Origin: Diplonema japonicum
Lineage: Eukaryota; Protista; Euglenozoa: Diplonemea
Assembly (NCBI GenBank): GCA_964019335.1
Contig: OZ025708.1
Location: 1-64,000 of the forward strand
Length of the DNA: 64,000 nucleotides
Direction of reading: 5' to 3'
Positions 12,897 to 62,100 of this stretch are shown here, piece by piece. The stretch's first letter is position 1. Each line of letters begins with the position of its first letter. The translations under genes were made by a program, and so were the position numbers. The notes under the pieces were generated by a model. It made no database searches. It saw only the letters and a list, made by a program, of their open reading frames with translations, and was not told the DNA's origin.

Positions 12897-12968
12897 CACC
12901 CACCGTGGGGATCGAACCCACGACCATTGGATTAAAGGTCCAACGCTCTACCGCTGAGCTAGGTGGGC
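12897..12968 (-). tRNA. tRNA-Lys(TTT)-like gene with atypical C33
   Basis: 72-nt cloverleaf: acceptor GCCCACC/GGTGGGT, D-arm GCTC..GAGC, anticodon stem TTGGA/TCCAA with loop CCTTTAA, T-loop GTTCGATC. Confidence 0.85.
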
Positions 12969-17910: not shown

Positions 17911-18320
17911 TTTTTTTTTTTTTTTTTTCAAAATACCAATGCAGGGCCGCCATGGAGAGCAACACCTGAGAAAAGGGAAAAAAAGGTGAAGGGAAACCAT
18001 GGGGAAATAGGGAGGGCAATGGACCAGGCTTCTGCAAGCAGGAGGAGCCCTGGTCCCCCACCAACCCGTGCTCTGCTTTGGGACAGCCGAAGAGGGCTGA
18101 ATTACATTTTTCCCTCAGTCAAGTGAGAGAAAAACGGGGGCCTACCTTCCAGCTGGATGTCCTTCTTTGGCTGGAACCTCCGGCGGAAAGCCCCCCAGGG
18201 AGGTATTGCTCCTATTGAGCGAATCATTGGTGAGTGTGAAAATAAAAAAAAGGGGAAATGGGAAACAGTGAGAGGAAGGTGAAGGAAGGGAAAGGAAGGG
18301 AAAGGAAAGTGGAAAACACA
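17911..18320 (-). mobile_element. Family B 3' UTR-only copy
   Basis: Poly(A) plus B UTR. Confidence 0.88.
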
Positions 18321-19663
18321 ATAATAATAATAAATGTACCACTGTCGTGCGAAGCTAAAGGCTGGGGGGGAGGGATAGGTGCAGGAGGCCTGAAGGGCCT
18401 CCTGCAAGTGAAAGGGGGAACGAGAGGGGTTGACAAATTTTTTGTAAAAGTTTAAAGAAAACCCTCCCACAACTATCCATACGTACCGAGGCGGGAGGTG
18501 GGCAGGCCCGGGGGCTCCCAGCGTTCGCAACTGTGCCCACCTTCAACGTCCCTCGGCATCTCACCAGCCCGCATCGCACAACAGCACCCTTTGGCCGAAC
18601 CTCCGGGATTTCAAGGGGTGGGGTACCTCGTCAGTGCTCGTAGGCACACCGGCACGGAGGCATCCCCTTCAGCCGGTTTTGTTGGGCTGTGGAGCCTTTG
18701 GAAAATAAAATTGTAAGGAAAACATAACCAGAGAGGAAGAAAGAAGTTGGGGTGCACGACAGGGCAAAAAAAAGGGAAGACATGGGGGATGAGAGTACTA
18801 TTACTAAAAAAGTTTAAATCTACTTCTACTTCTTGCCGGCCCGGCACAGCACGCCTCGCACCCAGCAGCACACGCCACGCAGACAGACCAGCGCACCTCC
18901 ACCGCCACCAGTTCTCTTCCAGTGTCCCCGTGCACCCCACCGTCGATCCGTTTATCTGTACCCAGTTCGGCTACCGATCTGTCTGGCCTTCCAGTTGCGA
19001 CAGGGCGGTCATTGCCTGAAGGGCGCCGGGATCAACACTGTGGCCTCCACTCCGCGCGAGACCGGTCTCAGCCTCACGTCTCTCGGATGGGGTACGCTGG
19101 AACACTGGGCGACGCCGCCGCCCGCATCACACCACAACACAGCGGAACCAGCACAAACAAACCGTACGCCACTCACCAGCGACACCAGCCACAACTCACC
19201 GCTCCTGTTCATCCCACCGTTGTCCGAGTACCTGTACCCAGTTAGCCTGTGTCCTGACTGGCCTTTCAGTTGGGGTAGGACTGACAACGCTACAAGGGCG
19301 CCGGGAACAACCTGTGGCCTCCACTGTGCGCGAGATCGGTCTCAGCCTCTCGACGCTGGTGGAATGAACAGGAACGGTGGGTGTCGCCGCCGCACACAAC
19401 CACGCACACGCCGCGCGATGGGAGAGAATGCCTTTTGCTCAGACCGAGTCTGAGTGGTCTTACACCCCCGCTACCGGTGCCCCGATAGCGGCTTGTGCCA
19501 AACAGACCGTCTTCGTTCCGGCACACTCCCCGACACGCCTTCGCGCTTTCGCACCACAGCCCTCCCTGGCCTGCGGTCCCAGGGGCCACCACGAGGAGGA
19601 CAGCGCAGGATACTTCACACCATGTTGTTGTTCTTTTTTTTATGTGTACCCCAACCCCCTTGA
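18321..19663 (-). mobile_element. Non-autonomous unit F: G-like 3' UTR plus a non-coding body with a twin structured repeat
   Basis: (TTA)n tail, UTR homologous to family G, no RT coding. Duplicated at 50271-51625. Confidence 0.7.
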
Positions 19664-20104
19664 TTTTTTTTTTTTTTTTTTTTTTTTTCAAAATACCAAT
19701 GCAGGGCCGCCATGGAGAGCAACACCTGAGAAAAGGGAAAAAAAGGTGAAGGGAAACCATGGGGAAATAGGGAGGGCAATGGACCAGGCTTCTGCAAGCA
19801 GGAGGAGCCCTGGTCCCCCACCAACCCGTGCTCTGCTTTGGGACAGCCGAAGAGGGCTGAATTACATTATTCCCTCAGTCAAGTGAGAGAAAAACGGGGG
19901 CCTACCTTCCAGCTGGATGTCCTTCTTTGGCTGGAACCTCCGGCGGAAAGCCCCCCAGGGAGGTATTGCTCCTATTGAGCGAATCATTGGTGAGTGTGAA
20001 AATAAAATAAAAAGGGGAAATGGGAAACAGTGAGAGGAAGGTGAAGGAAGGGAAAGGAAAGTGGAAAACACAACATTTCACTTTACACACACGCGGGCGA
20101 TCCC

Positions 20105-23100
20105 TTAGCGCAGCACGGGGGCCGCGGGACCGGCGTCAAGAGAGACCGGAGGAGGGGGCGGCACGTTTGAAGGTGCAGTGACGTCTGTAGACGCCAGGGA
20201 TGATGGCGAGGTGAACAGTCCGGAGCGTGACCAGGCGAGCAGGCCAGACTCAACAATGAGGTCGTAGATCTGGGTCACGCGTCTCGACAGGGAGAACGCT
20301 AGGGAGGGAGTACCAGCAGGAGTGTCGATCGCCCCCCTCCCGATCACAGGGCACCCACCGACAACATGCTCCCTGGACATCGGTGCTGCGTGGCAGGCTG
20401 GGCACCGGAGCACACCCTTGTGCTTCCTGTTCGGGCCAGCAGTCTGCAGGAAGCCGAAGAAGAGAGCCGAGTGACCAATCCGCAGCCGCGAGATGACCGT
20501 TTCAGCTTGTCTGGGGAAGCCAAGGGGGAAGTGCGCAGACCGAAGCTCGGTCGCCACCGCGTAGTTGTGGGCGAGGGATGTTATGAGCTCCGCGGACCTC
20601 CGCACCACCCACCGTCGCACCAGGGCCCTCACTGATCGGTAGTCAAGGGAGGGCCTGTCCTGCTTCCGCTTCGTTCCCTCCACGGCCAGAGCGTCAGCCT
20701 TCTCGTTCCCGTCCACCCCACAGTGGGAGGGCACAAACTGGAGGACCACCGGTGTCCCCTGCGTGCGCGCCGCGGACACCAGCCGGCTCCACGTCTGGTG
20801 GTCGAGCTTCTCCCTCTGTCGCGTTGGGCCAGCTCGCAGCTGCTCGACGAGGGAGAGGGAGTCGGTGCAGATCGACAGCGGGGACTTCGCCAGCGAAGGG
20901 TGTGTTTTTCGGAGGGTAGCCACCATATCCAGCGCCGTTTTCACAGCCATGCCCTCTGCCCGAAAAGATGAACAGAAGTCGTTGACGCCATGGCACACAG
21001 ACACAGGGGTCAGGGGGGGAGGCAGCTGCAGATAAACCCCAGAGCCACCTTTCGCCTTCTGTCCGACCTGTACAACCGAGCCATCCGTGTAGGCATGGAT
21101 GCCCGGGGGGAGAGCCGCAAGAGCAGCCTCGGCCGCCTTCCGCCTGTCCGCGTCTGGCGACGATCGCGTGACCCCGCCGGGGAGGTCAGTCCTGAAGTCG
21201 ACCATGCCTGTCTGCCACGGGGCCGCCAGGGGCGTAGCCGACAGGTACTCGAAGTGCACCTTTGGTTCCAACCCGCATCGACGCAGTGCTTGGTAGCCAG
21301 AGCGCAGCCACCCACACCCCAGCCTGTTCGCCTGCTTCAGCTTGACCGTCTCCCTGTGAACCGGGGAAGACTGCCAGCAGAAGGCCTTCGCCGTCATCGT
21401 CGCCGCAGCACCCTCCGCCATTCTTTCGAGGGGAAGCAGTCCTGCCTCAGCTAGGAGCTTGTACCCTCCGGAGCCACTCCAGCAGCCCGTGATCAGCACC
21501 GCCGCCTCCTGGTGAAGCCCAGCCAGGTCCTTCCTCCCGACATCATCGAGCCTGCTGTAGTAGACCCCCATGCAGTAGCGCAGCAGCGGGAGGATGTACG
21601 TAACGTAGAGAGACCGCAGAGTGTCCCTCTTGCTGCCCCAGGACGTGCCGGACAAGAGCTTCAGCACCCTCAGCCTTTTGCTGGCCCGCCGTAGGATGTC
21701 CTGTGCGTGTTCACCGAACGTGAGCCCAGAGTCCACCGTAACCCCAAGGTACCTCGCGTGTTCAGATAGAGGCAGGGGACGGGCCGCAACGTAATCCACG
21801 TCGGGCCGTCGCACGGCTGCATGCATGTCCCGCACGCAGCGGATCCGCACACCACCCGCCTCCACAACCTGAAGGCCCGCCAGCTCCTGGTCCCCGGAGA
21901 TCGTGCCATCGGCGTTCACCCCCAGGCCGAAGAGTGGGTTCTGGAAGGCACCTGGCTGAAGGGGGACTCGTGACGAAGTGAAGTAGACCCCGAGACGTTT
22001 CTGGGGGGGGACGCAGACTGCCTGCGTCTTGGACGTGCTCAGCAGCATGTCACGCTCCCTGCACCAGTCCTCAACCGCTTCCACCACCGCCTGCGCCTTC
22101 CGCTCCAGCCCAGCCACGTCCCCTTGTCCAGAGGAGATCACAACCGCCACGTCGTCGGCGTAGAGCACCGAGACGTCCGCCAGTCCCTCCAGTCTCCTGG
22201 CGAGTTCGTCGACGTAGATGGTGTACAGGATGGGACCCAAGACAGAGCCCTGGGGGACACCCCGTCGCACCTTCGTCGTCGACCCCCTCGACCGTCCAAT
22301 CGTGACCGCAGCAGTACGGCCGCATAGAAAGGACCGCGTCCACTCCACGAAGGGTTCGGGGAGACCCTTCCCTCGCATCTTGTCCAGCAGGGCACCATGG
22401 GGCACCAGGTCGAAGGCAGAAGAGAAGTCGAACAGCAGAGCGGCCGAGAGACGTCGATCGTCTTTGTTCCTCGACATGCACTCAGTGAGGGTTGCCACCT
22501 GCTCCTCCGTGGAGCGGCCGCGTCTGAAACCAGCCTGGCTGTCGTGGAGTCCCTCGACTCCCGTCCCGTCCGCGTCAAGAAGAAACGTGAGCCTCTCCTC
22601 GATCATCCTCTCCAGCAGCTTGCAGAGGCAGCTGGTCAGGCAGATCGGCCGGTAGGAAGCCAAGAGAGTCGCATCTTTTCCAGGTTTCGGTACCGGGACG
22701 ATCACTCCCTTCTTCCAGGCACCGGGGACGACACCCATCAGCCAGGAGCGATTGAGGAGTAGAAGGAGGACACCGAGGGAGTCCGAGTTCAGGTGTAGGA
22801 GCATCTCCGAGAAGATTCCGTCTTCCCCGGCCGCGCTGCGCGTCTTCATCCTTCTCAGGCCGCGGGTGAGGTCGTCCACGGTGAACGCTTGACACCCGAG
22901 TCTGCTTGCAGAAGGAGCGGCGTCCTTCGAGTTCCCGTCACCACGCCTGCCGTAGAGCTTAGCGAAGTGCGCCCCCAGCCGGTCGGCCTTCGCCTTGTCC
23001 GACACAAATCTTCCCTCGAGTACAGGAAGGTGTGTCTTTCGGTGCCTGCCGTCCAGCTTCTTCACCGCTCTGAACGCAGCCCCGAGGTCCTTGCTCCGGC

Positions 23101-24253
23101 TGAGGTCGGCCGCCATCCTTCCCCATGCCTCACGCTTCGTCTCGTCAAGGAGTCGGTTGACTTCCTTCACCTTCGCCCTGTACTCCTCCACCACGTCCGC
23201 CTCTTGAAGCAGGAGTTCGCGCAGGGTGTTCCGCTCTTCGAAGGCGTCCTCGAGCTCAGCAGTCCACCAGGGGGTCGGGCCACGTCGCATCCCACAGAGG
23301 GGAATGTGGTCGTTCGCCGCAGTCAAAAGGGCTTGTGTAAACCCCTTCGTGACAGAGTCAATCGGAGCCGCCGTGTCAACACCAGCAAGCAGGCGGGCAA
23401 CAGCAGCAGTGTAGTCATCCCATCTGGCTTTTTTGAAATTCCAGGTGGGGAAGGGGCGCTCCGAACGGTAGACGTCCTCAAGAGGCAGGTGAAAGGATAC
23501 GGGACTATGATCGGAGCCCCACGTGCCCAGCGTCTTCGGCTCAAGCTTCGCGCAGCGCCCCACAACCAGGTCCAGAACGTGTCGTGACGAGTCCCTCGTC
23601 GGTTCGTTGCGGTCGTTGTAGACGGAGTACCCGTGGGTGTCCAGCCAGTCCCTGACCACGTTCCCCCTCTCGTTCGGCGTCGTCACCGTGGCGTCCCAGG
23701 AGCTGTGGTGAGCATTGAAGTCACCCGCTATGACTGTGTTCTTCCCCATGGGAAGGCTGCCAGGCCGCAGGTACTCAGGGTCCCTCGTGCCTCTGCTCGC
23801 GCTTACCGGTGTAAGGTAAACGTTGGAGAGAGTGATCGGCTCACGCTTCTCGCAGGAGATCCTCACATCCAGTCTCTCAGTGACACAGTCCCCAGCCGGG
23901 AGTACGTGCGGAACCTCCTCCGAGGCAAGATCGTCGCGGACATACGTGACAATACCACCACCCCTCGTCGCAGTGCCGTCAGTCACCGGTGTCAACCGAT
24001 CCCTCCTGTATGACCTGTACCCAGGCAGGTGTGGCGTGTCGTGCCCTTCCCTCAGGTGCGTCTCCTGTATCATGATGATGTCCAGCGACAAGAAGTCAGC
24101 ATGGCGAGATACGACGGTCCATTTCGCAACGAGGCCGTTGCAGTTCCACGAGACAACCTTGAGACCCTTAGGCGACGGGGGCGGCAGCTTCTTGGGTGGG
24201 CCAGGGTTTGTTTCGACCAGCCCAAGCAGCCCCAGCAGGTCCCTGACGGACAT
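20105..24253 (-). CDS. Family B ORF2: 2A-like peptide, APE, RT, RNase H, Cys/His motif
   Basis: Motifs LVETNPGP, WNCNG, GDFNAH, GSDH, FDFSSAFD, GVPQG, YADD, YTDGS, GNEKAD, CPAC..H...C. Confidence 0.94.
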   Translation of the reverse strand: MSVRDLLGLLGLVETNPGPPKKLPPPSPKGLKVVSWNCNGLVAKWTVVSRHADFLSLDIIMIQETHLREGHDTPHLPGYRSYRRDRLTPVTDGTATRGGGIVTYVRDDLASEEVPHVLPAGDCVTERLDVRISCEKREPITLSNVYLTPVSASRGTRDPEYLRPGSLPMGKNTVIAGDFNAHHSSWDATVTTPNERGNVVRDWLDTHGYSVYNDRNEPTRDSSRHVLDLVVGRCAKLEPKTLGTWGSDHSPVSFHLPLEDVYRSERPFPTWNFKKARWDDYTAAVARLLAGVDTAAPIDSVTKGFTQALLTAANDHIPLCGMRRGPTPWWTAELEDAFEERNTLRELLLQEADVVEEYRAKVKEVNRLLDETKREAWGRMAADLSRSKDLGAAFRAVKKLDGRHRKTHLPVLEGRFVSDKAKADRLGAHFAKLYGRRGDGNSKDAAPSASRLGCQAFTVDDLTRGLRRMKTRSAAGEDGIFSEMLLHLNSDSLGVLLLLLNRSWLMGVVPGAWKKGVIVPVPKPGKDATLLASYRPICLTSCLCKLLERMIEERLTFLLDADGTGVEGLHDSQAGFRRGRSTEEQVATLTECMSRNKDDRRLSAALLFDFSSAFDLVPHGALLDKMRGKGLPEPFVEWTRSFLCGRTAAVTIGRSRGSTTKVRRGVPQGSVLGPILYTIYVDELARRLEGLADVSVLYADDVAVVISSGQGDVAGLERKAQAVVEAVEDWCRERDMLLSTSKTQAVCVPPQKRLGVYFTSSRVPLQPGAFQNPLFGLGVNADGTISGDQELAGLQVVEAGGVRIRCVRDMHAAVRRPDVDYVAARPLPLSEHARYLGVTVDSGLTFGEHAQDILRRASKRLRVLKLLSGTSWGSKRDTLRSLYVTYILPLLRYCMGVYYSRLDDVGRKDLAGLHQEAAVLITGCWSGSGGYKLLAEAGLLPLERMAEGAAATMTAKAFCWQSSPVHRETVKLKQANRLGCGWLRSGYQALRRCGLEPKVHFEYLSATPLAAPWQTGMVDFRTDLPGGVTRSSPDADRRKAAEAALAALPPGIHAYTDGSVVQVGQKAKGGSGVYLQLPPPLTPVSVCHGVNDFCSSFRAEGMAVKTALDMVATLRKTHPSLAKSPLSICTDSLSLVEQLRAGPTRQREKLDHQTWSRLVSAARTQGTPVVLQFVPSHCGVDGNEKADALAVEGTKRKQDRPSLDYRSVRALVRRWVVRRSAELITSLAHNYAVATELRSAHFPLGFPRQAETVISRLRIGHSALFFGFLQTAGPNRKHKGVLRCPACHAAPMSREHVVGGCPVIGRGAIDTPAGTPSLAFSLSRRVTQIYDLIVESGLLAWSRSGLFTSPSSLASTDVTAPSNVPPPPPVSLDAGPAAPVLR

Positions 24254-24394
24254 CCTCCCGAGTAGGGTGGGGATCAGTGCAGAAAAGTCGGTGAAGAAAC
24301 AGAGAGGTAGGAGTCTCCTGGGGAGGATGCGAGGGAGACTAGGAGAGGGAGCATGGTCGTAGATCTGCTGCTCCCCCTGTTCTGCGGGGCCCCT

Positions 24395-27235
24395 TCAATT
24401 GGATGGACCCATGGAGGCAGAGCGCCCCTTGACCCCATTGGTGAAGAGATCTTTGGTCTCCGCGAACGACCTGGCCCGCCCCCTCGTACCCAGGTTCGTC
24501 ACCGCAGCCTCAGAGGTCGTAGCGAGAGGAGGAGCCCCCTTCTTCCCCTTCCCCTTCCCTTTCCAGACACTGTCGTGTGTCGTCGTCGCCCCCGGTGTAG
24601 GGTCCCGCGGCACTGCCGTTCCCGTCGTCAGCGTGGCCGCCTGCGGCAGGAGGAGGCGGAGCGTCGTCCGCAGATCGGAGATCATCTCCTGCTGAGAGTC
24701 GATCGTCCTCTGCAGCCCGACGATCGACTCCTTCAGCGTGGCGACGAGCTCAGTGAGAGCGGCGACCTCAGGCGACCCGGAAGGGACTCCCTCCTTGTTT
24801 CCCGCAGACACGTTGCGGGGCGGTGTAGGGGACGTCACAGTGTCGAGCTGGGGGGGAGCCACCGAGCTCGGTATGGACGCCCACGGGCTGGTGGGAGGAA
24901 GCCCAGTTGCTTTCACCGCAGGGCCAGTCTCCGAGGGTGTCGACGCCGATACAGGTGCCGGGTCAGGTACAGGTGTAGTAGGCGCAGGTGCAGGTACATG
25001 AGAAGATGTGGGTGCCGGGGTCGAGGACGTTGCAAGCGCAGGTGCAGATGCAGGTGTCGTCCTGTTGATGAGAGGGGGCGGCTTGACGGTCGGGTGGTCG
25101 TCCGCATCACGGAGACAGACAAGGCGCCCCCCAAGGAGCCACGTCCTGGACTTCGGGGGCGGGCTGTCGACGACGATGAAGAACACGAGTTGCCTCGTGC
25201 CCTGGAACATCGTCTGCGTGCGTCGCAGGACGGAGGATGGTTTCCAACCGATGTGGTCCATCACTTCGTCGAAGGCCGCCCTGGTGATGGACGGCGGGGC
25301 CCCGGTGAGCAAAAACTTGCGCTTCGTACGCAGTTTTGCGAGGGTTTCCCGGAGCCGCTGTTCCGTCTCCGGTAGGCACCGCACAGTCCATCCCTTACGG
25401 TGCGCCACCCCGAGAGACAACCCACCCAGCGTCCCCGCAATCCGAAAGGCATCCGCCCTCCCTTCCGCCACGATGGGTACATAAGCGTACCCCCCGCGTC
25501 TCTCCGTCGTCCGCATTAAGCACCCGTCCCCGGACCGGCGCAGGACGGCGTGGACGTGTGCTGCTTGCAGGCGCAGTCCCACCTCGTGGGTCCAGTGCCT
25601 CGCCCGCGGTTCCTCCTCACCGAACTTCCTTGGGCGGAAGACCGCACGATCCTCCATCACCGCGCCCTGAGCCTTGGCGAGCTCCAGGACCCTGGCCTTC
25701 GCCTCCTTCAGGCTGTCTGCACTGACACAGACGTAGACGACCTCCGATCCGCTGTTGAAGGTGGAAGGCGGGGTGTAGGTGGGGGGGTCCAGCCCGAACG
25801 TGGAGACGTGGACCCTCCTGTTCACTGCGCGCGACCCAGAGACCATGACAATCTCGCTGGGGGTGGTGACACCGGGGACCTCTGTCATAAGGACAAAGGT
25901 GATGGATGCCGTAGGTAACGCGGAGCACACGACCCCCATTCCGGAGGGATCGTCGAGCGCAATGACAGCGCGGGATGTTTCCGTCGGGGGGGACACGTTG
26001 GTGTAGATCGGGGCGTCCCATGTGTCTGGCACCAGGTCCCATCGCGGGGTTGTGGAAGGGGCAGGGGCAGGGTCGTCCTCCATCTCCTCAGGGCCAGAGC
26101 TGGTGTCAGAGTCTGAGCTGAGGAGGAGCGTGCCTTGGTCTGTTGACGCGTTGGCGGAAGCGTTCGCGACTGCTTCGTCCTCGACCTTCTGGGCATCTGC
26201 CTTCTTGGCGGCCGCCAACCTCAAAGCTTCCTCCTTTTTGGCAGCGGCTGCGGCGGCTTCCTTTTCGGCGGCGGCGGTGGCTGCGACCTTCTTCTTCTCC
26301 TCGGCGGCGGCGGCTGCGGCTGCGGTCTCCTTCTCGGCGGCGGCGGCTGCAGCTTGCTTCCTGGCGGCGTCGGCTGCGGCCTTCCTCTCGGCGGCGGCGG
26401 CGGCAGCGGCTTTCTTCTCGGCGGCGGCGGCGGCGGCTGCTGCTTTCTTCTCGGCGGCGGCGGCGGCTGCGGCTTTCTTCTTCTCGGCTGCAGCGGCTGC
26501 GGCTGTAGCCTTCTTCTCCTCGGCTGCTTTCATCTCGGCCGCAGCACGCGCAGCCTCCTTCTCCTCTGCCGCAAGTCGTGCAGTAGACCGCTCGCGCAGA
26601 GCCTTCTCCTCAGCCTCGACTGCTCTGCGAGCAGCCTCCACACCAGCCACGCGTGCAGCTTCCGTCTCGGCTGCCATTTTGACAACAGCAGCATCAGCCA
26701 CCTCCTGCGCAGCCTTCATCTTAGCAGCTATTTCTGCAGCTACCACGTCGGCCGACTCGCGTGCAGCTTCCAAATCAGCAGCGATTCCCGCGAGTTCGAC
26801 GTCGGCCGCAGTGCGTGCGGCTTCGAGGGGGTGTGTGGCGTCAGCTATGTGTGCGGCTTCGGCGGCAGCGTCAGCGCGCGCGGCTCTGGCGGCCTTCCTC
26901 CTAGCTTTTTTGCTGGAGGTCGGGGTGGCGACGCTGGCGTCAGGCGAAACCGGCCTTTTGACGGAGCCGGTCGGGGTGGAGGCGACAGGTGTCGCTGGGC
27001 CGGCTGTAGCGGCGGCGGCGTCGGGCGTGAGGAGGTCAATTACGGTGACCACCCCCGTCATCTTCTCCCGGTGCTCCGGCGTCAGGAGCTGCCCCAGCTC
27101 CCCGGCTGCTCCAGCGCTGCGGAGCATCCTCTCCACCCGCCGCTCCTCCCTGGCCTTGGACTGGGCCAGCTGCGTGCTGGCCCCGTTCCCTTCCGGCTTT
27201 GCCTTCTCCTTGTGCTTGTCTTTCTTCTTGCCCAT
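24395..27235 (-). CDS. Family B ORF1 (946 aa; Ala/Lys/Glu repeat plus core shared with family C)
   Basis: Real start MGKKKDKHKEK at 27235, confirmed by the plus-strand copy starting at 62101. Core WDLVPDTWDAPIYTN..RARHWxHEVGLRL is shared with family C ORF1. Confidence 0.87.
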   Translation of the reverse strand: MGKKKDKHKEKAKPEGNGASTQLAQSKAREERRVERMLRSAGAAGELGQLLTPEHREKMTGVVTVIDLLTPDAAAATAGPATPVASTPTGSVKRPVSPDASVATPTSSKKARRKAARAARADAAAEAAHIADATHPLEAARTAADVELAGIAADLEAARESADVVAAEIAAKMKAAQEVADAAVVKMAAETEAARVAGVEAARRAVEAEEKALRERSTARLAAEEKEAARAAAEMKAAEEKKATAAAAAAEKKKAAAAAAAEKKAAAAAAAAEKKAAAAAAAERKAAADAARKQAAAAAAEKETAAAAAAAEEKKKVAATAAAEKEAAAAAAKKEEALRLAAAKKADAQKVEDEAVANASANASTDQGTLLLSSDSDTSSGPEEMEDDPAPAPSTTPRWDLVPDTWDAPIYTNVSPPTETSRAVIALDDPSGMGVVCSALPTASITFVLMTEVPGVTTPSEIVMVSGSRAVNRRVHVSTFGLDPPTYTPPSTFNSGSEVVYVCVSADSLKEAKARVLELAKAQGAVMEDRAVFRPRKFGEEEPRARHWTHEVGLRLQAAHVHAVLRRSGDGCLMRTTERRGGYAYVPIVAEGRADAFRIAGTLGGLSLGVAHRKGWTVRCLPETEQRLRETLAKLRTKRKFLLTGAPPSITRAAFDEVMDHIGWKPSSVLRRTQTMFQGTRQLVFFIVVDSPPPKSRTWLLGGRLVCLRDADDHPTVKPPPLINRTTPASAPALATSSTPAPTSSHVPAPAPTTPVPDPAPVSASTPSETGPAVKATGLPPTSPWASIPSSVAPPQLDTVTSPTPPRNVSAGNKEGVPSGSPEVAALTELVATLKESIVGLQRTIDSQQEMISDLRTTLRLLLPQAATLTTGTAVPRDPTPGATTTHDSVWKGKGKGKKGAPPLATTSEAAVTNLGTRGRARSFAETKDLFTNGVKGRSASMGPSN
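26200..26600 (-). repeat. Coding low-complexity repeat (AAAAAEKK)n
   Basis: GCC/GAG/AAG tandem units whose number differs from the copy at 62780-63140. Confidence 0.8.
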
Positions 27236-27293
27236 TTTTCTTTTCTTTTCTTTTCTTTTCTTTTCTTTCCTTCCCTTCCTTTCCTTTCCGATA

Positions 27294-27736
27294 TTTTTTT
27301 TTTTAATAATAATAATAAATATTCCACTACCAGGCGGGAGGATCGAAGGGGAGTAGAGAAAACCATTCAAGGGAAAGGGAAAGGGACATCACTTCAAACC
27401 AAGAGAGGTGTTTGAAAGTGATTCGTGAAAAGCAGTCTCTGTTACTGAGCCATTGGTCGAGGGGTCCTGGTCCGCTGCTCCCTGTAGTAAATTACTTGGA
27501 CCCCCTCACCACGCTCTTTTCATAATAAAATAAAACCGATCCCACCCACCAGGCAGCACCTGGGTCTCGAGGCATTAGCCGCCTCTAGTAACAAGAGACG
27601 ACCTCCCAGATTTTAAGAACTTTGGAGGAGTTTCAATTGTGAAAAATTAACCAGCTGACTGTGAAACTCCACCGTCTGCTGGACTTGTTGGGCTTTCGGG
27701 AGCCAATAAATTCAATTCAATTAAGTTTCGTTCTTC

Positions 27737-29260: not shown

Positions 29261-29985
29261 TTTTTTTTTTTTTCAAAATACCAATAGGTGCCACCATGGG
29301 GGAGCAACACCTGGGAAGGGGAAAGGTGAAGGGAAGCATGGAAATATTACAGGGAGGGCGAAGACCAGTTCTTCTGCAATCAGATGGAGCTGTGGACTCC
29401 GCCAACCCGTGCACCTGTTTGGAACAGCCGAAGAGGGCTGAATTACTTTAATTCCAAGCCGCGTAGACCTACGTGACTCGGACGGGGACCTTGACCCCAG
29501 TTCGTCGTTTTTCTCAACTGGGACCTCTGGTGACCGGAACTGGCCCCGGTCGCCCCCTCGAGAGGGATTTGCTCCATTGAGCGAAACATGAAAGGGTGAG
29601 AGTAAAATCTCTCAAAATCAAAAGGGGAAGCGAGTGTGCGTGTGCGCATGGGGATGATAGGGGAAGCATTTGCTCTCCCCGCTGCACTCCGGCTGGCGGG
29701 GGGAGGGGATGGCCGTACCACACTCGTTCGTGCGAAGATGAGAGGACTCATCTGGGCAACTTCAGAGTAGGCCGGGCCATCCGTTTTTGACTACAATGTC
29801 AGGGCACACGATAACAAGAGGATGTTAATTTTAAAAATTTAAAAGTTTAAAAGGGGACGGGCATACTGGTAAGAGAAAGGCCAGACGCCGGATGATGATA
29901 AAGAAAAGGATGAGAGGGAGTGGAAGAGAGGGGAAGGGAACGTAAGCACTAAAAGAATTGAAATGTTGATCTCACCCTACTCACT

Positions 29986-32900
29986 TCAGCGCAACACGGG
30001 GGCCGCAGGGCCGGCGTCAAGGGAGACAGCCGGCGGGATGAACGAAGGGGCAGCGGTACCTGCCGTTGCCGCAGACGGCGACGTGAAGACCCCGGATCTG
30101 GCCCAGTCAAGCAAGCCAGAGTCGGCGATGAGGGTGAATACCTGCGTCACGCGTTTTGACAGGCACTCCACCAGCGAGGGGCGTCCATTGGGAGCGTCGA
30201 GCGAACCCCGTCCAACCACAGCGCACCCCCCAACAACGTGCTCCCTGGACATCTTTGCTCCACACGCTGGGCAGCTGAGCTCAGCCTTCTTCCTGTTCGG
30301 TCCAGCCGCCTGCAGGAAGCCGAAGAAGAGAGCGGAGTGCCCTACCCTCAGCCGCGAGATGACCGTCTCCGCTAGCCTGGGGAGGGACTGGGGGAAGCAC
30401 GCCGCTCGGAGCCCCGTGGCCCTCGCGTATCTCGGGGCCACCTCCCCGACAATGACCGCAGACCTCTGCTGAATCTGGCGACGGACCAGGGCCCTGACCG
30501 ACCTGTAGTCGAGAGAGGGGCGAGTCAGCTCGCGCTTCGTGCCCTCCCCGGCCAGCCTGTCTGCCGCCTCGTTGCCAGGAACCCCGCAGTGGGACGGCAC
30601 AAACTGGAGAATGACTGGTGCACCTTGTGCACGTGCCGCGGCCACCAGCAGTTCCCAGGTCTCGTGGTCGAGCCTCTCCCTCTGCCGCGAAGGACCTGCC
30701 CTCAGCTGATCAAGGAGAGAGAGCGAGTCGGTACAGATCGACAGCCGGCTGTCTGCCAACGTGGGGTGCTCGCTCCGGAGCGCGGCCACCATGTCCAGAG
30801 CCACCTTGACAGCCAGACCCTCCGCCCGAAAGGAAGAGCAGAAATTGCTGACGCCGAAGCTCTCGGACACGGGTTCGTGGGGGCGGGGGAGCTGCAAGTA
30901 GACCCCGGCGCCGCCCCTCCACCTCTGGCGGTCCCGTACGACAGAACCATCCGTATAGGCATGGATACCCGGTGGAAGGGCAGCCAGAGCCTCCACGGCC
31001 GCCTTCCGCTTATCCACGTCCGGCGACGAACGCGTGACCCTGCCGGGAAGGGCAGTTCTGAACTCCACCAGGAACGCGTGCCACGGTGCTACTTTGGGCG
31101 AGGCAGTCAGTAGCTCGAAGGTGTCGTACTTCCTGAAGCCTTCCTGCGTCGTCCACCCCTGCAGTCCGCAGCGTCGTAGCGCAAGGATACCCGCACGCAG
31201 CCACCCATTGCCCATACCGGTCATCCGCTTCTGCTCAAGGACCTCGCGGTGAACCGGGGAGGTCCTCCAGCAGAACGACTTCGCCGTCAACACCGCCGCA
31301 GCTCCCTCAGCCATCTGTCGGAGGGGTAGCAGACCTGCCTCAGCAACAACCTTCGCCGTGCCCGAGCCGTGCCAACAACCCGAGATCAGCACCGCCGCTC
31401 TCTGGTGGAGCCCAACAAGCTCCTCCACCCTGCTGTCCCTGAGCCTGGCAAAGTAAACACCCATGCAGTACCGGAGTAGCGGGAGAACGTACGTGAGGTA
31501 CAGAGATCGGAGCGTGGCCTTCTTGCACCCCCAGGTCGTGCCCGACAGGAGCCTTAGTACCCTCAGCCTCTTGTCAGCGCTCCTCAGGACATCCCCCGCA
31601 TGCTCGTCAAACGTGAGCCCAGAGTCTACAGTGACCCCAAGATACTTCGCCGACCCACATAGAGGCAAGGGGCGAGCCGCCATGTAACCAATGTCGGACC
31701 TCCGGATGGCGGCGGGAATGTCGAAGGACCGTTTGCCACCCGCCTCCACGACCCGAAAGCCAGACAGCTCACGGACGCCAGACAAGGTCCCACAGACCCC
31801 AACCCCAAGATTAAGGACAGGGTCCTGGAAGGCCCCCGGGCAAAGCGGGACACGCGACGAAGAGAAGTAGACATTAAGCCGCTTCTGATAGGGAACGCAC
31901 ACTGCCTGCGACTTGCTGGAGCTCAGCAGCATGCCCCGTCTCCCACACCAGCCCTCAACCGCGTCCATCACAGCCTGGGCCCCTCGCTCAAGACCAGCCA
32001 GGTCGCCCTGCCCGGCTGAGACCACCACCGCAACATCGTCGGCATAAAGAACCGACAGGTCCGCCATCCCAACCAGCAACCTGGCTAGCTCGTCGACGTA
32101 GATGGTGTAAAGGACGGGTCCCAGCACAGACCCTTGGGGCACCCCTCTCCTCACCTTCGTCGTCGACCCTCGCGAACGACCCACCGTGACCGCCGCCGTA
32201 CGACCGCAGAGGAAGGAGCGCGTCCATTCGACGAAGGGCTCAGGGATCCCTTTCCTCCGCATCATGCCCAAGAGAGCTTCGTGCTGAACCAGGTCAAACG
32301 CAGATGAGAAGTCAAACAGCAGGGCAGCCGACAGACGCCGACTGTCTTTGTTCCTCGACAGGCACCCGGTCAGGGACGCCACCTGCTCCTCCGTGGAGCG
32401 GCCCCTCCTGAAGCCAGCCTGGCTGTCGTGGAGACTCTCAACGCCCGACGCGCTAGAGTCTAGGAGAAAGGTAAGCCTCTCCTCTATCATCCTCTCAAGC
32501 AGCTTACAAAGACAGCTAGTGAGACATATGGGACGGTACGATGCAAGCAACGTGGCGTCCTTCCCTGCCTTCGCCACTGGAACAATCACCCCCTTCTTCC
32601 AGGCACCCGGCACGATCCCCGCCTGCCATGAGCGATTGAGGAGCAGAAGTAGAACCCCGAGCGAGGGTTGGTCGAGGTGGAGAAGCATCTCCGCGAAGAT
32701 GCCATCATCACCCGCTGCACTGCGTGTCTTCATCCTTCCCAGACCGCGGGTGAGATCATACACCGTAAAGGCGTGGCACCCAAGCACGTTCGTCGAAGGA
32801 GCTACGTCCACCGCGTCCCCATCACCACCCTGGCCGTAGAGCTTGCCGAAGTGAGCCCCCAGGCGGTCGGCTTTCGCCTTGTCCGTCACGAACCTCCCCT

Positions 32901-34150
32901 CGAGAATGGGAAGGTGCGGTCTGCGGTGTCTGCCGTCCAGCTTCTTCACCGCCCTAAACGCAGACCCGAGGTCCTTGCTCCGACTGAGGTCAGCCGCCAT
33001 CTCACCCCAGGCCGCGCGCTTCGACTCGGTCATGAGTTGGTTTACCTCCTTGACCTTCGCCTTGTAGACCGCCGCCACGCTGTCGTCCTCAGTCTCAGCC
33101 GACTTGAGGAAGCGATCCCGCAGGGCGTTCCGTTCTTCGAAGGCGTCTTCGAGTTCGGCCGTCCACCAGGGGGTCGGGCCTCGTCGCACTCCGCAAAGCG
33201 GAATGTGGTCGTCAGCTGCATGCAGAAGAGCCTCTGTAACCTCCTTCGTGAAGGAGTCAATGTGGGCCTTCGTGTCGATCTTGGTCAGAAGGGCAGCGGC
33301 GGCCGCGGTGAAGTCGTCCCACCTGGCCTTTTTGAAGTTCCAGGTAGGGCAGGGTCGCTCCGAGCAGTAGGCGTCCTCAAGCGGCAGGCGGAAGGAAACC
33401 GGGCTGTGATCAGAGCCCCACGTCCCCAACGTCCTCGGCTCCAGTTCCGCACAACGTCCCACCACCAGGTCCAGAACGCGTGGCGGTGAGTCCCGCGTCG
33501 GCTCGTCTCGGTTGTTGTAGACGGTGTAGCCGTGGGTGTCAAGCCAGTCCCTGACCACGTTCCCCCTTTCGTTGGGCGTTGTCACCTTGGCATCCCAAGA
33601 GCTGTGGTGTGCGTTGAAGTCGCCAGCAACGATCGTGTTCTTCCCCACAGGTAGGCTGCCCGGCCGTAGGTACTCGGGGTCCCTTGTTCCTCTGCTTATA
33701 CTCACAGGCGTGAGGTACACGTTGGAGAGGGTGACCGGGACGCGCTTCACACAGGAGATCCTCACGTCTAATCGCTCAGTGACACTGTCACCTTCAGGGA
33801 GTACGAAAGGAGCTTCCTCCGAGGCAAGGCAGTCACGGACATACGTGATGACACCACCGCCTCTCGTCGCAGAGCCGTCCGTCACCGGTGTTGTGCGGTC
33901 CCTCCTGTAGGACGTGTATCCAGGCAGGTATGGTGTCTCATGCCCCTCCCTAAGGTGTCTCCTGGATCATAATGATATCCAGCGTCAGTAGGACAGCGTG
34001 GTAGGACACGGTTGACCACTTGGCGGCAAGACCGTTGCAGTTCCAGGACAGGACCCTGAGTCCCTTCGGCTTCGGGGGTGGGAGCTTCTTAGGTGGACCG
34101 GGGTTCGTCTCAACCAGCCCAAGCAGCCCCAGCAGGTCCCTGGCCGACAT
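29986..34150 (-). pseudogene. Family C ORF2 (2A-APE-RT-RNase H) with one frameshift
   Basis: QETH is broken near 33955 by an apparent 2-nt loss relative to B. 29986-33885 is open, with YADD and YTDGS. Confidence 0.87.
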
Positions 34151-34291
34151 CCGTTCAAGTAAGGAAGGGATCAAGGAAGGGAGGACGTCGTACAAGTGAT
34201 GTGGAAGGTGTCTCCTCGGCTGTATGCGCGGGAGACCAGGAGAGGGGGCGTGGTCGTCGATCTGACGCCCCCCCTGCTCAGCGGGACCCCT

Positions 34292-36490
34292 TCAATTGGC
34301 AGGGGCGGGGGCCGGGCCCACAGAGGCTGCCCGTCCACGGCCGGCCCCGTTGGGGGAAGCAGAGTCGCCAGCCAGCGACTGGGCGCGTCCCCTTCCGCCC
34401 CCTTGCTCCGTCGATGTCGGGTAGGGGCCTGGCGTGCTTACGCCCTGCGCCTGGTGCCCCTTCGTCCCTGCCTTGGACCCAGCCTTGCCGCCCTTGCCCT
34501 TCCCAGCCACTGCCGTCCGCCCAGCTCCGTCTGCAGATGACGCCGGCGCGCCAAGTGACGCTGCCATCCTCTCCTGGAGGTCGCGGACCGTCGCCTGCAG
34601 ACCGTCGATGGTCGCCTGCATCGACTGGATCAGCGCGAGGAGCGCCGGGACCTCTGGTTCCGGTGCGGGATTCTTCTTCTGGGAGTCACGGGGAGGTGTC
34701 GTGGTCGGGGAAGCCGCAGAGGAGACCGGAGTCACAGTGCCAAGTGGCGGAGGGGCAACCGAGCTCGGTGGAGATGACCACGGATTGGTGCTCGGCAGCC
34801 CTGTGGACTGCACCGTGGGGCCAGGGGCCGGCGTCGGCGTCTGGGCCGTGGTTGCCGCAACCGGCGTCCGAGCCGCGGGTGGAGCCTTCTTGTTGGTGCG
34901 GGGCGGGAGCGTGACGCTCGGGTGGTCTTCCGCGTCGTGCAGTCGAACGAGACGAGAGCCGAAGAGCCATGTCCTGGCCTTGGGGGGCGGGGCGTCGGCG
35001 ACGATGAAGAACACGAGTTGCCTCGTGCCCTGGAACGCCGTGTCAGAGCGTCGGATGATGGACGACGGCTTCCAACCGATGTGGTCCATCATCCCGTCGA
35101 AGGCTGCCCTGGTAACAGACAGCGGGGCTCCGGTGAGCAGGTACCGACGCTTTGTCCTCTGCTTGGCGAGGGCCTCCCTCAGACGCTGCTCCGTCTCCGG
35201 CAGGCACCTCACGGTCCAACCCTTGCGATGGGCCACCCCCAGGGACAACCCGCCCAGTGCCTTCGCCAGCTGGAAGGCCTCCGCCCTCCCCTCCGCTACG
35301 ATGGGCACGTAGGTGTACCCCCCGCGCCGCTCGGTCGTCCTGACCATGCAGCCGTCGCCCGAGGCCCGGAGTACCGCATGGACGGATGCCGCCGGGAGCC
35401 GCAGGCCCACCTCGTGGCTCCAGTGCCGCGCCCGCGGCTCGTTCCCGTCGATCTTCTTCGGGCGGAAGATCGCCTGCTCCTCCACCGCCACGCCCTGGGT
35501 CGCGACGAGGTCCCGAACCCTGGCCTTCGCCGCGTTCACGCTGTCAGCTTTCACGCTGACGTACACTACCTCAGTGCCGCCATCAAAAGAAGCGAGTGGG
35601 GTGTAGGAGGGGGGGTTCGACCCGACCGAGAAGGTGTGCACGGCCTTGTGCACGACACGCTGGCCGGCGAGTACGATGACGGTGCATGGGGTGGTCGAAC
35701 CGGCAACCTCCGTCAAGAGGACGAAGGTCAGGGAGGCCGTGGGCCTCGCAGTGCGAATCGCGTCCACCTGCTGGAGGTCGTCGAGAGCGACGACGGCGCG
35801 GGGCACCTCCTCAGGGGGAGCAGTGTTGGTGTAGATGGGGGCGTCCCACGTGTCGGGGACCAGATCCCAGTGAGGCTCCGGGGCCGGTGCGGGAGCGGGG
35901 GCCGTGTCCTTCTCGTCGGTGTCAGAGTCCGACATGGGGAGGGCGGTGTCGCAGGCAGCGGCAGTGAGGACGGCAGTAGACCACACGGCAGCAGTAGAGG
36001 CTGGAGCAGGCGCAGGAGCAGGGGAGTCGGCAGCAGCAGGCGCAGGAGCAGTGGTGTCGGCAGCAGCAGGTGCAGGAGCAGTGGTGTTGGCAGCAGCAGG
36101 TGCAGGAGCAGTGGCAGTGGTGTCGGCGGCAGCAGTCCTCATCCTCGCCCTCCTGACCTCTGGCGTGTCGACCGTGAACGAGGTGACAACGCCCGGCGAC
36201 TCGCTAATTAAGACGACAGAGTCGTCGGAGCCCGAAGCGGCGGCGGTGGCAGCGTCAGCAGCTGCTGCCTTCTGTCTGGCCCTTCTGGCCGCCTTCTTCC
36301 CTTGCCCGGGGGAGGGTGTCACCACCGGCGTGACCCCCTCTGCGCGCTTCCTCTCCACCTCCTCGCGCGTGCGCTTCGCCCTGGCGGCGGCGTTGTCCTT
36401 TACCCGCTCACCGCGGGCTTTCTCCAGGATTTCTTCCGTCCTGGACTTGTGGTGAGCGGGCCTCTTTTTCTTCTTGTTGGAGGTCGACAT
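34292..36490 (-). CDS. Family C ORF1 (732 aa)
   Basis: Homologous to B ORF1. Carries (TTAPAPAAAD)n repeats near 35990-36130. Confidence 0.87.
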   Translation of the reverse strand: MSTSNKKKKRPAHHKSRTEEILEKARGERVKDNAAARAKRTREEVERKRAEGVTPVVTPSPGQGKKAARRARQKAAAADAATAAASGSDDSVVLISESPGVVTSFTVDTPEVRRARMRTAAADTTATAPAPAAANTTAPAPAAADTTAPAPAAADSPAPAPAPASTAAVWSTAVLTAAACDTALPMSDSDTDEKDTAPAPAPAPEPHWDLVPDTWDAPIYTNTAPPEEVPRAVVALDDLQQVDAIRTARPTASLTFVLLTEVAGSTTPCTVIVLAGQRVVHKAVHTFSVGSNPPSYTPLASFDGGTEVVYVSVKADSVNAAKARVRDLVATQGVAVEEQAIFRPKKIDGNEPRARHWSHEVGLRLPAASVHAVLRASGDGCMVRTTERRGGYTYVPIVAEGRAEAFQLAKALGGLSLGVAHRKGWTVRCLPETEQRLREALAKQRTKRRYLLTGAPLSVTRAAFDGMMDHIGWKPSSIIRRSDTAFQGTRQLVFFIVADAPPPKARTWLFGSRLVRLHDAEDHPSVTLPPRTNKKAPPAARTPVAATTAQTPTPAPGPTVQSTGLPSTNPWSSPPSSVAPPPLGTVTPVSSAASPTTTPPRDSQKKNPAPEPEVPALLALIQSMQATIDGLQATVRDLQERMAASLGAPASSADGAGRTAVAGKGKGGKAGSKAGTKGHQAQGVSTPGPYPTSTEQGGGRGRAQSLAGDSASPNGAGRGRAASVGPAPAPAN

Positions 36491-36516: not shown

Positions 36517-37044
36517 TTTTTTTTTTTTAATAATAAATGAACCACTGACGTGCGAAGCAAAGGCTGGGGGGGGGGACAGAACAGGTGGACCAAGGGTCTC
36601 CCTGTATCTAACGAAAGGGGGAAAGGAATGTGATAACCTTGAAACTTCCGCTAAACTATCCATACGTACCGAGGACGGAGGTGGGGCCGGTTCGTGGGCT
36701 CCAGTGTTCGCGACTTCGCCCACCTCCGTGACCCCGGCAGCTCTCCAGCCCGCTTCCCAAGCCAGCACCCTTCGGGCGAACCTCCGGGTTTTTGAGGAGT
36801 GGGGTACCTCGTCCGTGCTCGCCCTCACGAGCGGCACACTGGCACGGAGGCATCCCCTTCAGCCAGCTTTGTTGGGCGGCGGAGCCTTAGAAAATTCAAA
36901 ACAAAGGGAAATGATACGGGGGGATGTGTGAAGGGGCGGGGAAAGGTGAAGACAGAAGTTGGGGTGCACGACAGGGTAATAATGGGAAACACAGGGGGAG
37001 GGGGAGAGGGTTCACTAGTACTTTTTGGTTCACTTTTTTCTGTT

Positions 37045-37419: not shown

Positions 37420-38218
37420 TTTTTTTTTTTAATAATAATAATAAATATTCCACTACCAGGCGGGAGGATCGAAGGGGAGTAGAGAAAACCATTCAAGGGG
37501 AAGGGAAAGGGACATCACTTCAAACCAAGAGAGGTGTTTGAAAGTGATTCGTGAAAAGCAGTCTCTGTTACTGAGCCATTGGTCGAGGGGTCCTGGTCCG
37601 CTGCTCCCTGTTGTAAATTACTTGGACCCCCTCACCACGCTCTTTTCATAATAAAATAAAACCGATCCCACCCACCAGGCAGCACCTGGGTCTCGAGGCA
37701 TTAGCCGCCTCTAGTAACAAGAGACGACCTCCCAGATTTTAAGAACTTTGGAGGAGTTTCAATTGTGAAAAATTAACCAGCTGACTGTGAAACTCCACCG
37801 TCTGCTGGACTTGTTGGGCTTTCGGGAGCCAATAAATTCAATTCAATTAAGTTTCGTTCTACAGTTTTTTTTTTTTTTTTTATATATATTCTTCTTTTTT
37901 TTTTTTTTTCTTTTTTTTTTTTTTTCTCAAAAATAAAGGAATTCAAATCAAGCTCGATCGTGTACACCGAAGCTTGAATCATCTGTCCTTCTTTTTTTCT
38001 TTTTTTTTTTCTTTTTTCTTTCTATATGAAAGGTGAGTGAAAATTTTGAATAACACTGGGGGCGGGGGTCAGGGGCCTGGTAATGGAAAATAAGGGAAGA
38101 CACTGGGGAGGGAGGTGAAAAGAAAGGATAGGAGTGAAGCCAGAGTCGAGAGATTGAGTTAGAAACAATTGCTGTCTGAAGTCGTATAACAACAGTACAG
38201 CTTCAAACTCAGGATAAT
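37420..38218 (-). mobile_element. Family E' 3' UTR-only copy
   Basis: Matches about 53936-54728. Confidence 0.85.
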
Positions 38219-38772: not shown

Positions 38773-39369
38773 GTTTTTTTTTTTTAATAATAATAAATAT
38801 TCCACTACCAGGCCGGAGGATCGAAGGGGAGTAGAGAAAACCATTCAAGGGAAAGGGAAAGGGACATCACTTCAAACCAAGAGAGGTGTTTGAAAGTGAT
38901 TCGTGAAAAGCAGTCTCTGTTACTGAGCCATTGGTCGAGGGGTCCTGGTCCGCTGCTCCCTGTTGTAAATTACTTGGACCCCCTCACCACGCTCTTTTCA
39001 TAATAAAATAAAACCGATCCCACCCACCAGGCAGCACCTGGGTCTCGAGGCATTAGCCGCCTCTAGTAACAAGAGACGACCTCCCAGATTTTAAGAACTT
39101 TGGAGGAGTTTCAATTGTGAAAAATTAACCAGCTGACTGTGAAACTCCACCGTCTGCTGGACTTGTTGGGCTTTCGGGAGCCAATAAATTCAATTCAATT
39201 AAGTTTCGTTCTACAGTTTTTTTTTTTTTTTTTTTTTTTTATATATTCTTCTTTTTTTTTTTTTTTTTTTTTTTTTTTTCTCAAAAATAAAGGAATTCAA
39301 ATCAAGCTCGATCGTGTACACCGAAGCTTGAATCACCTGTCCTTCTTTTTTTTTTTTTTTTTTTTCTTT

Positions 39370-49409: not shown

Positions 49410-49581
49410 TGCCTTTGTGGTCACCCCTACCTTCAGGTCTTCGAAGATAGGGTTGTACGACTTGGGGGGGGCCGGCCCTAACAGACCTTACGTCGCCACC
49501 ACTAACGCCTTGTCCCGTTTGGACACCCCTATACGTGCGGGGCCGGCCAGGATTTAGCCGCGAGTTGTAGCCAAGTCGTAC
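49410..49581 (-). promoter_or_regulatory. Conserved structured RNA in the ORF1-ORF2 spacer (IRES-like candidate)
   Basis: Homolog of 5614-5781 with compensatory changes. Confidence 0.65.
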
Positions 49582-52085: not shown

Positions 52086-52089
52086 GGCC

Positions 52090-53930: not shown

Positions 53931-53935
53931 ATAGA

Positions 53936-61795: not shown

Positions 61796-62072
61796 AAAAA
61801 AAGACACAAAAAAAGACACAAAAAAGACCAGAAGGAGGGAGTGCTAAACCCCCCTACCTATGGTGCTGTTTGTTCTCTTCTTGGGCGAAAGGCTCATGAT
61901 ACCTTCACTTTGATTTTTGATTTCTCGAGCTCTGCTTTTCAACTCAGCTTTGTTGATTTTTTCTTCCTTTCCCCATTTTCCTTTTATCCTTTTCAAACCT
62001 TCTCTGATGCTCCCGACCCGGCAGTGGAACAGATATTATTATTATTATTATTATTATTATTTAAAAAAAAAA
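61796..62072 (+). mobile_element. 3' UTR-only unit J (H-related), plus strand
   Basis: Ends GGCAGTGGAACA-GA-(TAT)n-poly(A). Confidence 0.65.
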
Positions 62073-62100
62073 GAACATATTATCATCGCGAAAAAAGTAC

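Follow-up and report, generated by a model that had tools for sequence, protein, structure and literature searches.

The junction between ORF1 and ORF2 in two families of non-LTR retrotransposons of Diplonema japonicum, referred to here as B and C, bears a coding and a structural signal that are real and well-supported. ORF1 ends at a UGA, the frame stays open through a spacer into ORF2 and, as substitution tests support, the spacer evolves as protein in the ORF1/ORF2 frame only. Programmed read-through at the ORF1 UGA is the best reading of this arrangement and is probably the correct one. A 2A-like motif would then free the ORF2 enzyme by StopGo. Since this motif has leucine in place of the canonical aspartate, StopGo is held with less assurance than read-through, and the two events taken together are plausible but fall short of probable.

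Organization of families B and C

The window (the whole stretch of 64,000 nucleotides that was analysed) is filled by a nest of non-LTR retrotransposons. ORF2 of families B and C encodes APE, RT and RNase H domains, in this order (PF03372/PF14529, PF00078 and PF00075, all above the Pfam cut-offs), and the two families are non-LTR retrotransposons of the APE type that carry RNase H. Their features are as follows.

24395..27235, minus strand: family B ORF1, 946 amino acids, from the ATG at 27235 to a TGA; Ala/Lys/Glu-rich N-terminal part, globular core, disordered tail
24395..24397, minus strand: family B ORF1 stop, TGA within CC-AAT-TGA-AGG-GG, a candidate read-through codon (from sequence)
24254..24394, minus strand: family B in-frame spacer, 47 codons, under coding-type selection that is strongest in codons 1-27 (substitution tests)
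24344..24378, minus strand: family B stem 1, 10 bp (24378-24369 with 24353-24344), 15-nt loop, two compensated pairs, 16 nt past the stop (folding and B/C comparison)
24313..24339, minus strand: family B stem 2, 6 invariant bp (folding and B/C comparison)
24197..24253, minus strand: family B ATG (24253) and 2A-like peptide ending GLVETNPG/P, with the predicted skip between 24200 and 24199 (sequence; dN/dS 0.05)
20105..24196, minus strand: family B ORF2 body with APE endonuclease, reverse transcriptase and RNase H; intact, TAA end (Pfam; P0001)
34292..36490, minus strand: family C ORF1, 732 amino acids, TGA at 34294-34292 (sequence)
34151..34291, minus strand: family C spacer, 47 codons, with stem 1 at 34275-34241 and stem 2 at 34236-34210 (sequence and folding)
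34094..34150, minus strand: family C ATG (34150) and 2A-like peptide ending GLVETNPG/P (sequence)
29986..34093, minus strand: family C ORF2 (APE-RT-RNase H), TGA end, with a frame break in the window copy near 33960 (Pfam and sequence)

Family B ORF2 is 99% identical to P0001, a EukProt transcript protein of D. japonicum. The frame break in the family C copy lies downstream of the ORF1/ORF2 junction. The closest APE relative is a Diplonema ambulator protein, P0004 (42%), which carries a variant motif, GDVHRHPGP, ahead of its APE domain. A single ORF without ORF1 is a criterion of the Ingi/L1Tc clade, and Ingi-clade elements are described as lacking ORF1, at least in the available parts of the sources; in B and C an ORF1 of 732-946 amino acids lies upstream of ORF2.

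ORF1 of B and C gave no Pfam match and could be assigned to no family with confidence. A structure model of ORF1 has a pLDDT of 38.8; its residues 97-186 resemble ferredoxin-like ACT/RRM folds at Z 6-8, which is a common level, and Atlas matches of 0.75-0.80 provide a lead only. The model thus hints, at low confidence, at a ferredoxin-like/RRM-type domain, and its quality is too poor for the fold to be named.

At least seven partial copies of family B, 96-99% identical, have a common 3' end and differing 5' break points, and runs of T are found at the 3' ends on the plus strand. These are dispersed, 5'-truncated copies with an A-tailed common 3' end. A second copy of family B ORF1 (97%; 62065-63999, plus strand) ends at the edge of the window, before its junction.

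The ORF1 stop and the in-frame spacer

The codon table confirms what the initial annotation had described: ORF1 of B and C ends AAT-TGA (24397-24395 and 34294-34292), and the same frame is open, without any gap, for 47 sense codons. Both spacer peptides and the synonymous changes GGC/GGT, GCA/GCT, GAA/GAG and CCT/CCG are as claimed, and so is the common stop context, CCAATTGAAGGGG, 13 identical bases around the stop. The statement that no AUG occurs until shortly ahead of LGLVETNPGP holds for the reading frame, in which the first is the ATG at 24253 (34150 in C), but B has an out-of-frame ATG at 24354. Upstream of the stop, the last ~100 codons of ORF1 align poorly between B and C (dN/dS 0.73-0.87, with indels). 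Pyrimidines make up 72% of spacer codons 28-47, compared with 47-49% of the ORFs.

In these elements TGA otherwise serves as an ordinary stop, since it terminates family C ORF2 and other ORFs, and since tryptophan is encoded by TGG (22 and 21 codons in the B and C ORF2 frames) with no internal TGA. In EukProt, the transcript-derived ORF1 proteins P0002 and P0003 both have as their last residue the one encoded just ahead of the TGA.

Copies in public sequencing runs

Contigs from 7 of 23 runs (X2, X6, X7, X11, X14, X18 and X19) were compared with the window. No run is on record as RNA and, the kinds of run not being on record, the contigs are not taken as evidence of expression. One contig of X6 (depth 1758) crosses the B junction (24216-24704) with no difference, and a 3220-nt contig of X2 does likewise across the C junction. 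In X7, overlapping contigs of depth 1650-2140 span the C junction without any difference, and B-type contigs run on into the B spacer. X11 and X14 have the B sequence unchanged at a depth of 2-5, and X18 has no contig matching the window. A further contig has a foreign flank, lacks 6 nt of stem 1 without loss of frame, and ends before it reaches the stop from upstream; since its depth is only 113, the form with the TGA very likely predominates among many copies, depth itself being no copy number. Neither a spliced nor an edited nor a fused form of the junction is found among the contigs examined. In X6, X2, X7 and X19 there is no joint across either junction and no short loose end, the loose ends at or near the junctions being longer than 99 letters.

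Run X19, which bears another organism label, holds a third variant that is C-like in ORF1 and the spacer and B-like in APE (24077-24403; 34073-34344). Of its 32 differences, 20 are listed, the remainder lying near the ends of the aligned piece, and the codons were read by hand. Relative to C, no listed change falls at 34278-34299, the region of the TGA, and the spacer has no indel. All five changes in codons 1-27 are synonymous and at third positions; three are not shared with B, and one turns a G-C pair of stem 1 into G-U. Codons 28-47 have eight changes, two synonymous and six non-synonymous. The switch point of this mosaic is located around the 2A motif, which may point to module swapping at 2A.

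Coding-type selection on the spacer

Between B and C, dN/dS is 0.21 over the 47 spacer codons and 0.16 over codons 1-27, as compared with 0.195 for the ORF2 body (1311 aligned codons). The other two sense frames of the spacer give 1.33 and 1.42. When the 41 observed substitutions were placed at random (20000 permutations each way), 22-23 identical residues were expected, whereas 30 of 47 are observed (p 0.0006 and 0.0025). The proposal that the spacer is conserved as protein from the first codon after the stop is borne out by these values, and synonymous changes occur from codon 2 on. The permutation signal sits in codons 1-27 (p 0.001-0.006); codons 28-47 taken alone have no significant excess of B/C identity (p about 0.2). 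The open frame by itself is weak evidence because 38-44% of the permutations likewise remained free of stops.

Since codons 1-27 overlap both hairpins, the unpaired positions were tested alone. Between B and C, third positions vary at 8 of 16 and the others at 2 of 33 (p 0.0009); with X19 included the counts are 9 of 16 and 2 of 33 (p 0.0002), in a comparison of only three sequences of which the third is a B/C mosaic. This third-position bias outside the stems indicates that the signal is codon-shaped and not structural alone. Spacer dS (1.07) is no lower than that of ORF2 (0.87), which indicates that the stop is old and has been kept by both active lineages, and argues against recent conversion or homogenization.

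A conserved antisense ORF was also considered and was rejected, as the long plus-strand ORFs over the two junctions lie in different frames and the antisense frames contain stops.

No relative carrying the spacer was found. Candidates were 4 of 511 in a metagenome scan, all of them distant APE sequences at 23-27%, and 0 of 99 in IMG/VR. Protein searches (1 of 1196, 1 of 7986 and 8 of 7985 candidates) yielded no fused ORF1-ORF2 relative within the length limits, which is weak evidence. All the matches listed in the representative protein search start at query residue 46 or later.

RNA structure downstream of the stop

Stem 1 begins 16 nt after the stop and carries two A-U/G-C double changes, and stem 2, with its 6 invariant bp, follows; both had been correctly recognized at the outset. 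The B/C alignment of ~6.2 kb has 43 shared sense-strand helices of at least 7 bp. Two of these reach 10 bp and two carry two double changes, stem 1 being the only one that has both 10 bp and double changes. The compensated pairs of stem 1 account for two of the amino-acid replacements in codons 1-27. Folding energies at the junction are unremarkable (z +0.12 to -1.70), and a two-sequence covariation control (B/C) was not significant, the level being reached in 115 of 500 shuffles.

According to the available part of one account (PMC13517186), the ribosome's mRNA channel covers roughly 11-12 nt. The 16 nt that separate stem 1 from the stop exceed this length, a point against hairpin-aided read-through. 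A pseudoknot formed by the stem 1 loop with the following bases was rejected by inspection, since it is mismatched in B and the loop is too short. An Rfam search at E up to 1 gave 11 matches, none of them to a SECIS or a ribozyme family; a 5' Pr77/HDV-like ribozyme is among the criteria of the Ingi/L1Tc clade. Over the 2A codons there is a weak match to DUF3800-XI that stays far under its threshold, and none of the matches at the junction is credible.

A proposed leaky UGA followed by StopGo

According to the reading favoured here, most ribosomes would stop at the UGA and yield ORF1p, while a few would insert an amino acid there, presumably by way of a near-cognate tRNA, and go on to translate the spacer. 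This low, programmed rate would probably be aided by the stop context and perhaps by the hairpin that begins 16 nt further on. At 66 codons past the UGA, the 2A-like peptide would next set the APE-RT-RNase H enzyme free from the extended ORF1 protein. The predicted products are an abundant ORF1p, a minor ORF1p with a tail of ~66 amino acids ending NPG, and a free ORF2p starting with Pro, presumably at a low ORF2:ORF1 ratio.

That read-through sets the dose of ORF2, as was first suggested, stands in part: translation of the spacer is backed by the codon-type selection, and read-through is favoured because it is the simplest route to a translated spacer, but a stop followed by restart on AGG would leave the same signature. 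The UGA-AGG context resembles the UGAAGA and UGAAGU of retroviruses. UGA-A is not the leakiest stop context. Also to be counted against read-through coupled to StopGo is the loose constraint on codons 28-47, apparent in both the B/C permutations and the X19 changes.

A more far-reaching version can be advanced only tentatively. It assumes two recoding events in series within 200 nt, in which a hairpin-assisted UGA would set the dose of RT and a new, Leu-type StopGo would free the enzyme. The 27-residue tail would be a functional module of the minor ORF1 isoform, and 2A might serve as a general adaptor that lets LINE families of this genome swap the mode of ribosome entry into ORF2. The notion of an adaptor arises because the ORF1 of a further family, D, also ends Asn-UGA-A before a 2A-like motif.

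Family D is a third 2A-bearing LINE (39121-45134, plus strand; junction 40810-40905) and has APE-RT without an RNase H match. Its ORF1 is weakly similar to that of B/C (E 0.002, 54 columns), and ~25 codons separate its Asn-TGA-A from GIHPNPGP. The ORF2 of the copy in the window lies in the -1 frame, and a run of A stands right after the stop without a standard slippery heptamer. The junction may work by frameshifting, or it may be one of read-through at which this particular copy has slipped by one base.

The 2A-like motif

The 2A-like motif of B and C is located directly ahead of APE, with a dN/dS of 0.05. Its core is L-V-E-T-NPGP, with leucine where aspartate is canonical, and thus departs from the Class A core, (D/G/C/N)(V/I)ExNPGP, as a single-position variant (Class X). 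The Leu-rich upstream segment is present (RDLLGLLG, three Leu at -13 to -10). B, C and X19 all retain the ATG ahead of the motif, from which an 18-residue 2A would be read in the ordinary AUG-2A-APE layout, a point against read-through coupled to StopGo. An NPGP-type motif near the N-terminus, ahead of APE, occurs in 46 of 150 distant relatives, as counted by eye with P0001 and two matches of internal similarity only left out.

The available portion of one survey (PMC12846837) names D, G, C and N, and rarely T or V, as functional residues at the variant position of the core, Leu not being among those named there. In the same portion, the natural variants tested are about 90% active, and Val at the Asp position was active. 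A screen, as far as its accessible text goes, found 139 of 1969 single-position variants to be highly active (10.64898/2026.09.24.754024). On balance, skipping by the B/C motif is more probable than not, and if read-through takes place StopGo would probably follow. The proposal that StopGo frees the enzyme from ORF1 is supported in part by the conserved NPGP-type motif ahead of APE, but it is the weaker half of the scheme, and weaker than claimed, given the absence of Leu from the listed functional residues.

The alternative that survives best, although improbable, accepts read-through and assumes that the Leu motif does not skip or only stalls. A Gag-Pol-like ORF1-ORF2 fusion would then be made, or the motif would lower ORF2 output. 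The Leu-for-Asp core lies outside the functional variants listed in the portion of the survey cited above, most single-position variants in the screen were inactive, and Leu-rich eukaryotic 2A-like peptides often cut protein abundance instead of skipping. Against it stand the low dN/dS of the motif, its intact ETNPGP and its placement exactly as in LINE 2As, as well as the tolerance for a hydrophobic Val at the very same core position.

Another element of the window is mentioned here on account of its position. A 160-nt block, 83% identical, is common to two otherwise divergent LINE families (5622-5781; 49418-49581, minus strand), where it follows a long A-rich spacer and lies upstream of a canonical GDVExNPGP. 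It has no Rfam match, and its fold z-scores are +1.1 and -1.1. A 4-nt indel suggests that the block is conserved as RNA, and an IRES or a ribozyme is possible.

Other routes to ORF2

Improbable as well is an ORF2 start at the ATG at 24253, reached either by reinitiation or by internal entry in the manner put forward for mammalian L1. In that case the spacer would be conserved as RNA, be a relic, or be read only for a minor ORF1 isoform. The conservation of this ATG in all three sequences fits such a start, and so does the transcript ORF, which is called from it; the strongest conservation coincides with the two hairpins, where two of the amino-acid replacements of codons 1-27 fall on compensated pairs. 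However, the third-position bias persists in the unpaired positions, the 141-nt gap is more than twice the 63 nt of L1, and the out-of-frame ATG at 24354 in B would intercept scanning.

Distinctly improbable is a stop at the UGA with immediate in-frame restart on the near-cognate AGG, for which the hairpins further on would provide the help that structure gives in SART1; the spacer would be an ORF2 leader trimmed by 2A. Such a restart predicts the same coding signal from codon 2, and B, C and X19 all have an unchanged AGG directly 3' of the TGA. As a start codon, however, AGG is very poor. Moreover, no TGGGA is found in the 120 nt before either stop, TGGG words occur at unlike distances, and the overlapping near-cognate TTG and ATT feed the other two frames. 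To go by the parts of the sources at hand, SART1 depends on structure that lies downstream of its stop-start, and in caliciviruses reinitiation can also use codons other than AUG; both facts would suit restart on AGG.

Removal of the stop by RNA processing is very improbable. It could proceed by cis-splicing to the AG after the TGA, by trans-splicing near the pyrimidine-rich codons 28-47, or by A-to-I editing of the UGA to a Trp codon. TGA-AG/G supplies an AG, in B another AG stands just before the ATG, and the 72% pyrimidine content of codons 28-47 is suggestive. However, C and X19 lack an AG before the ATG, transcript-derived ORF1 ends at the stop, and no joint crosses the junction in X6, X2, X7 or X19, in contigs of a kind that drops rare variants. 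ORF2p acts preferentially in cis. On this basis, processed RNA would be expected to have been copied back as fused or TGG copies, and none is seen. Finally, the AG in question is GAAG, whereas Diplonemidae introns end CAG, according to the portion available of PMC12621601.

That the TGA results from misassembly or from a mutation that disabled a former single ORF, or that it is a reassigned or selenocysteine codon, is largely refuted. Single ORFs with 2A between ORF1-like and ORF2-like parts do exist, to judge from a source available in part, and long homopolymer tracts occur in the window, as does a broken copy of C. But the same TGA recurs in three diverged variants and in high-depth contigs, both ORF2s have been under purifying selection since the split, TGA is otherwise an ordinary stop that is absent from the interior of the ORF2 frames, and the 11 Rfam matches include no SECIS. 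Even when taken together, splicing, editing and artefact are unlikely.

Relation to known systems

Each half of the favoured reading, the leaky UGA and the StopGo, has a precedent, in a read-through proposal for a LINE and in LINE 2As, respectively; their pairing was not found in print. Read-through has been put forward for LINEs before, from consensus sequences of the Paramecium group 3 non-LTR retrotransposons (PMC5405496, available in part). These are likewise APE-RT LINEs with ORF1 and ORF2 in the same frame and an in-frame stop between them. They differ in host and clade, and the text available reports neither a test of read-through nor a stimulatory structure or 2A, and lists no RNase H.

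The 2A-bearing APE LINEs (L1Tc, Ingi, CR1, L2, Rex1 and Crack) resemble B and C in that their ORF2 has a 2A-like peptide N-terminally, immediately ahead of APE (PMC3708506, PMC3894237). Most of them lack ORF1, whereas B and C have a long ORF1 in frame behind a stop, and Leu for Asp in the core. In the accessible portions of the same two papers, a 2A at the start of ORF2 correlates with loss of ORF1, with few exceptions, and it is argued that 2A replaces ORF1-based down-regulation. Cordylochernes elements also have a 2A-like peptide between ORF1-like and ORF2-like domains, but within single predicted proteins, and no intervening stop is described in the part available (bioRxiv 10.64898/2026.06.17.732966).

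Gammaretroviral and epsilon-like gag-pol junctions share with B and C a stop between structural and enzyme ORFs and a 3' structure (PMC13517186, in part). MuLV has UAG, an 8-nt spacer, a pseudoknot and protease processing, whereas B and C combine UGA with tandem hairpins after a spacer of 16 nt and with a 2A-like motif; a Pfam search found no protease domain in B/C. The same source lists UGAAGA and UGAAGU for fish and frog retroviruses and states that epsilonretroviral read-through is not experimentally verified.

Reinitiation has been described for SART1 and L1 (PMC5972666, PMC10275272, PMC2881922, PMC5009743, each available in part). These are bicistronic LINE RNAs too, and SART1 needs RNA structure past the ORF1 stop (PMC5972666, PMC10275272, PMC3708506). 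SART1 has an overlapping UAAUG and L1 a 63-nt spacer, whereas the 141-nt spacer of B/C evolves as protein in frame with both ORFs.

Many LINE ORFs of D. papillatum are described as unanalysed in the available part of PMC10161547. The literature searched, which lacked most subscription papers and Repbase, yielded no description of a LINE that pairs read-through with 2A in tandem, nor of these diplonemid elements.

How bicistronic LINEs make their second protein is a long-open question, and the worked cases use reinitiation. The B/C junction offers a compact 200-nt cassette in which a retrovirus-like solution in a LINE is directly testable. If the favoured reading is true, it would be a counter-example to the replacement of ORF1-based control by 2A, would widen the StopGo core by one residue and would provide a signal for read-through in Euglenozoa.

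Other features of the window

Several elements begin or end at a ATTTATTATTATTAAAA-type site within the 3' ends of other elements (27290-27312, 36520-36545, 37425-37448 and 50275-50298), and these shared sites suggest targeted nested insertion. Two long repeats of 100% identity extend across element boundaries (18320-20124 = 50282-52086 and 29261-30608 = 52584-53931) and represent recent segmental duplication or assembly redundancy. A tRNA gene lies inside the LINE nest (12897-12968, minus strand; Rfam RF00005, 67.6 bits).
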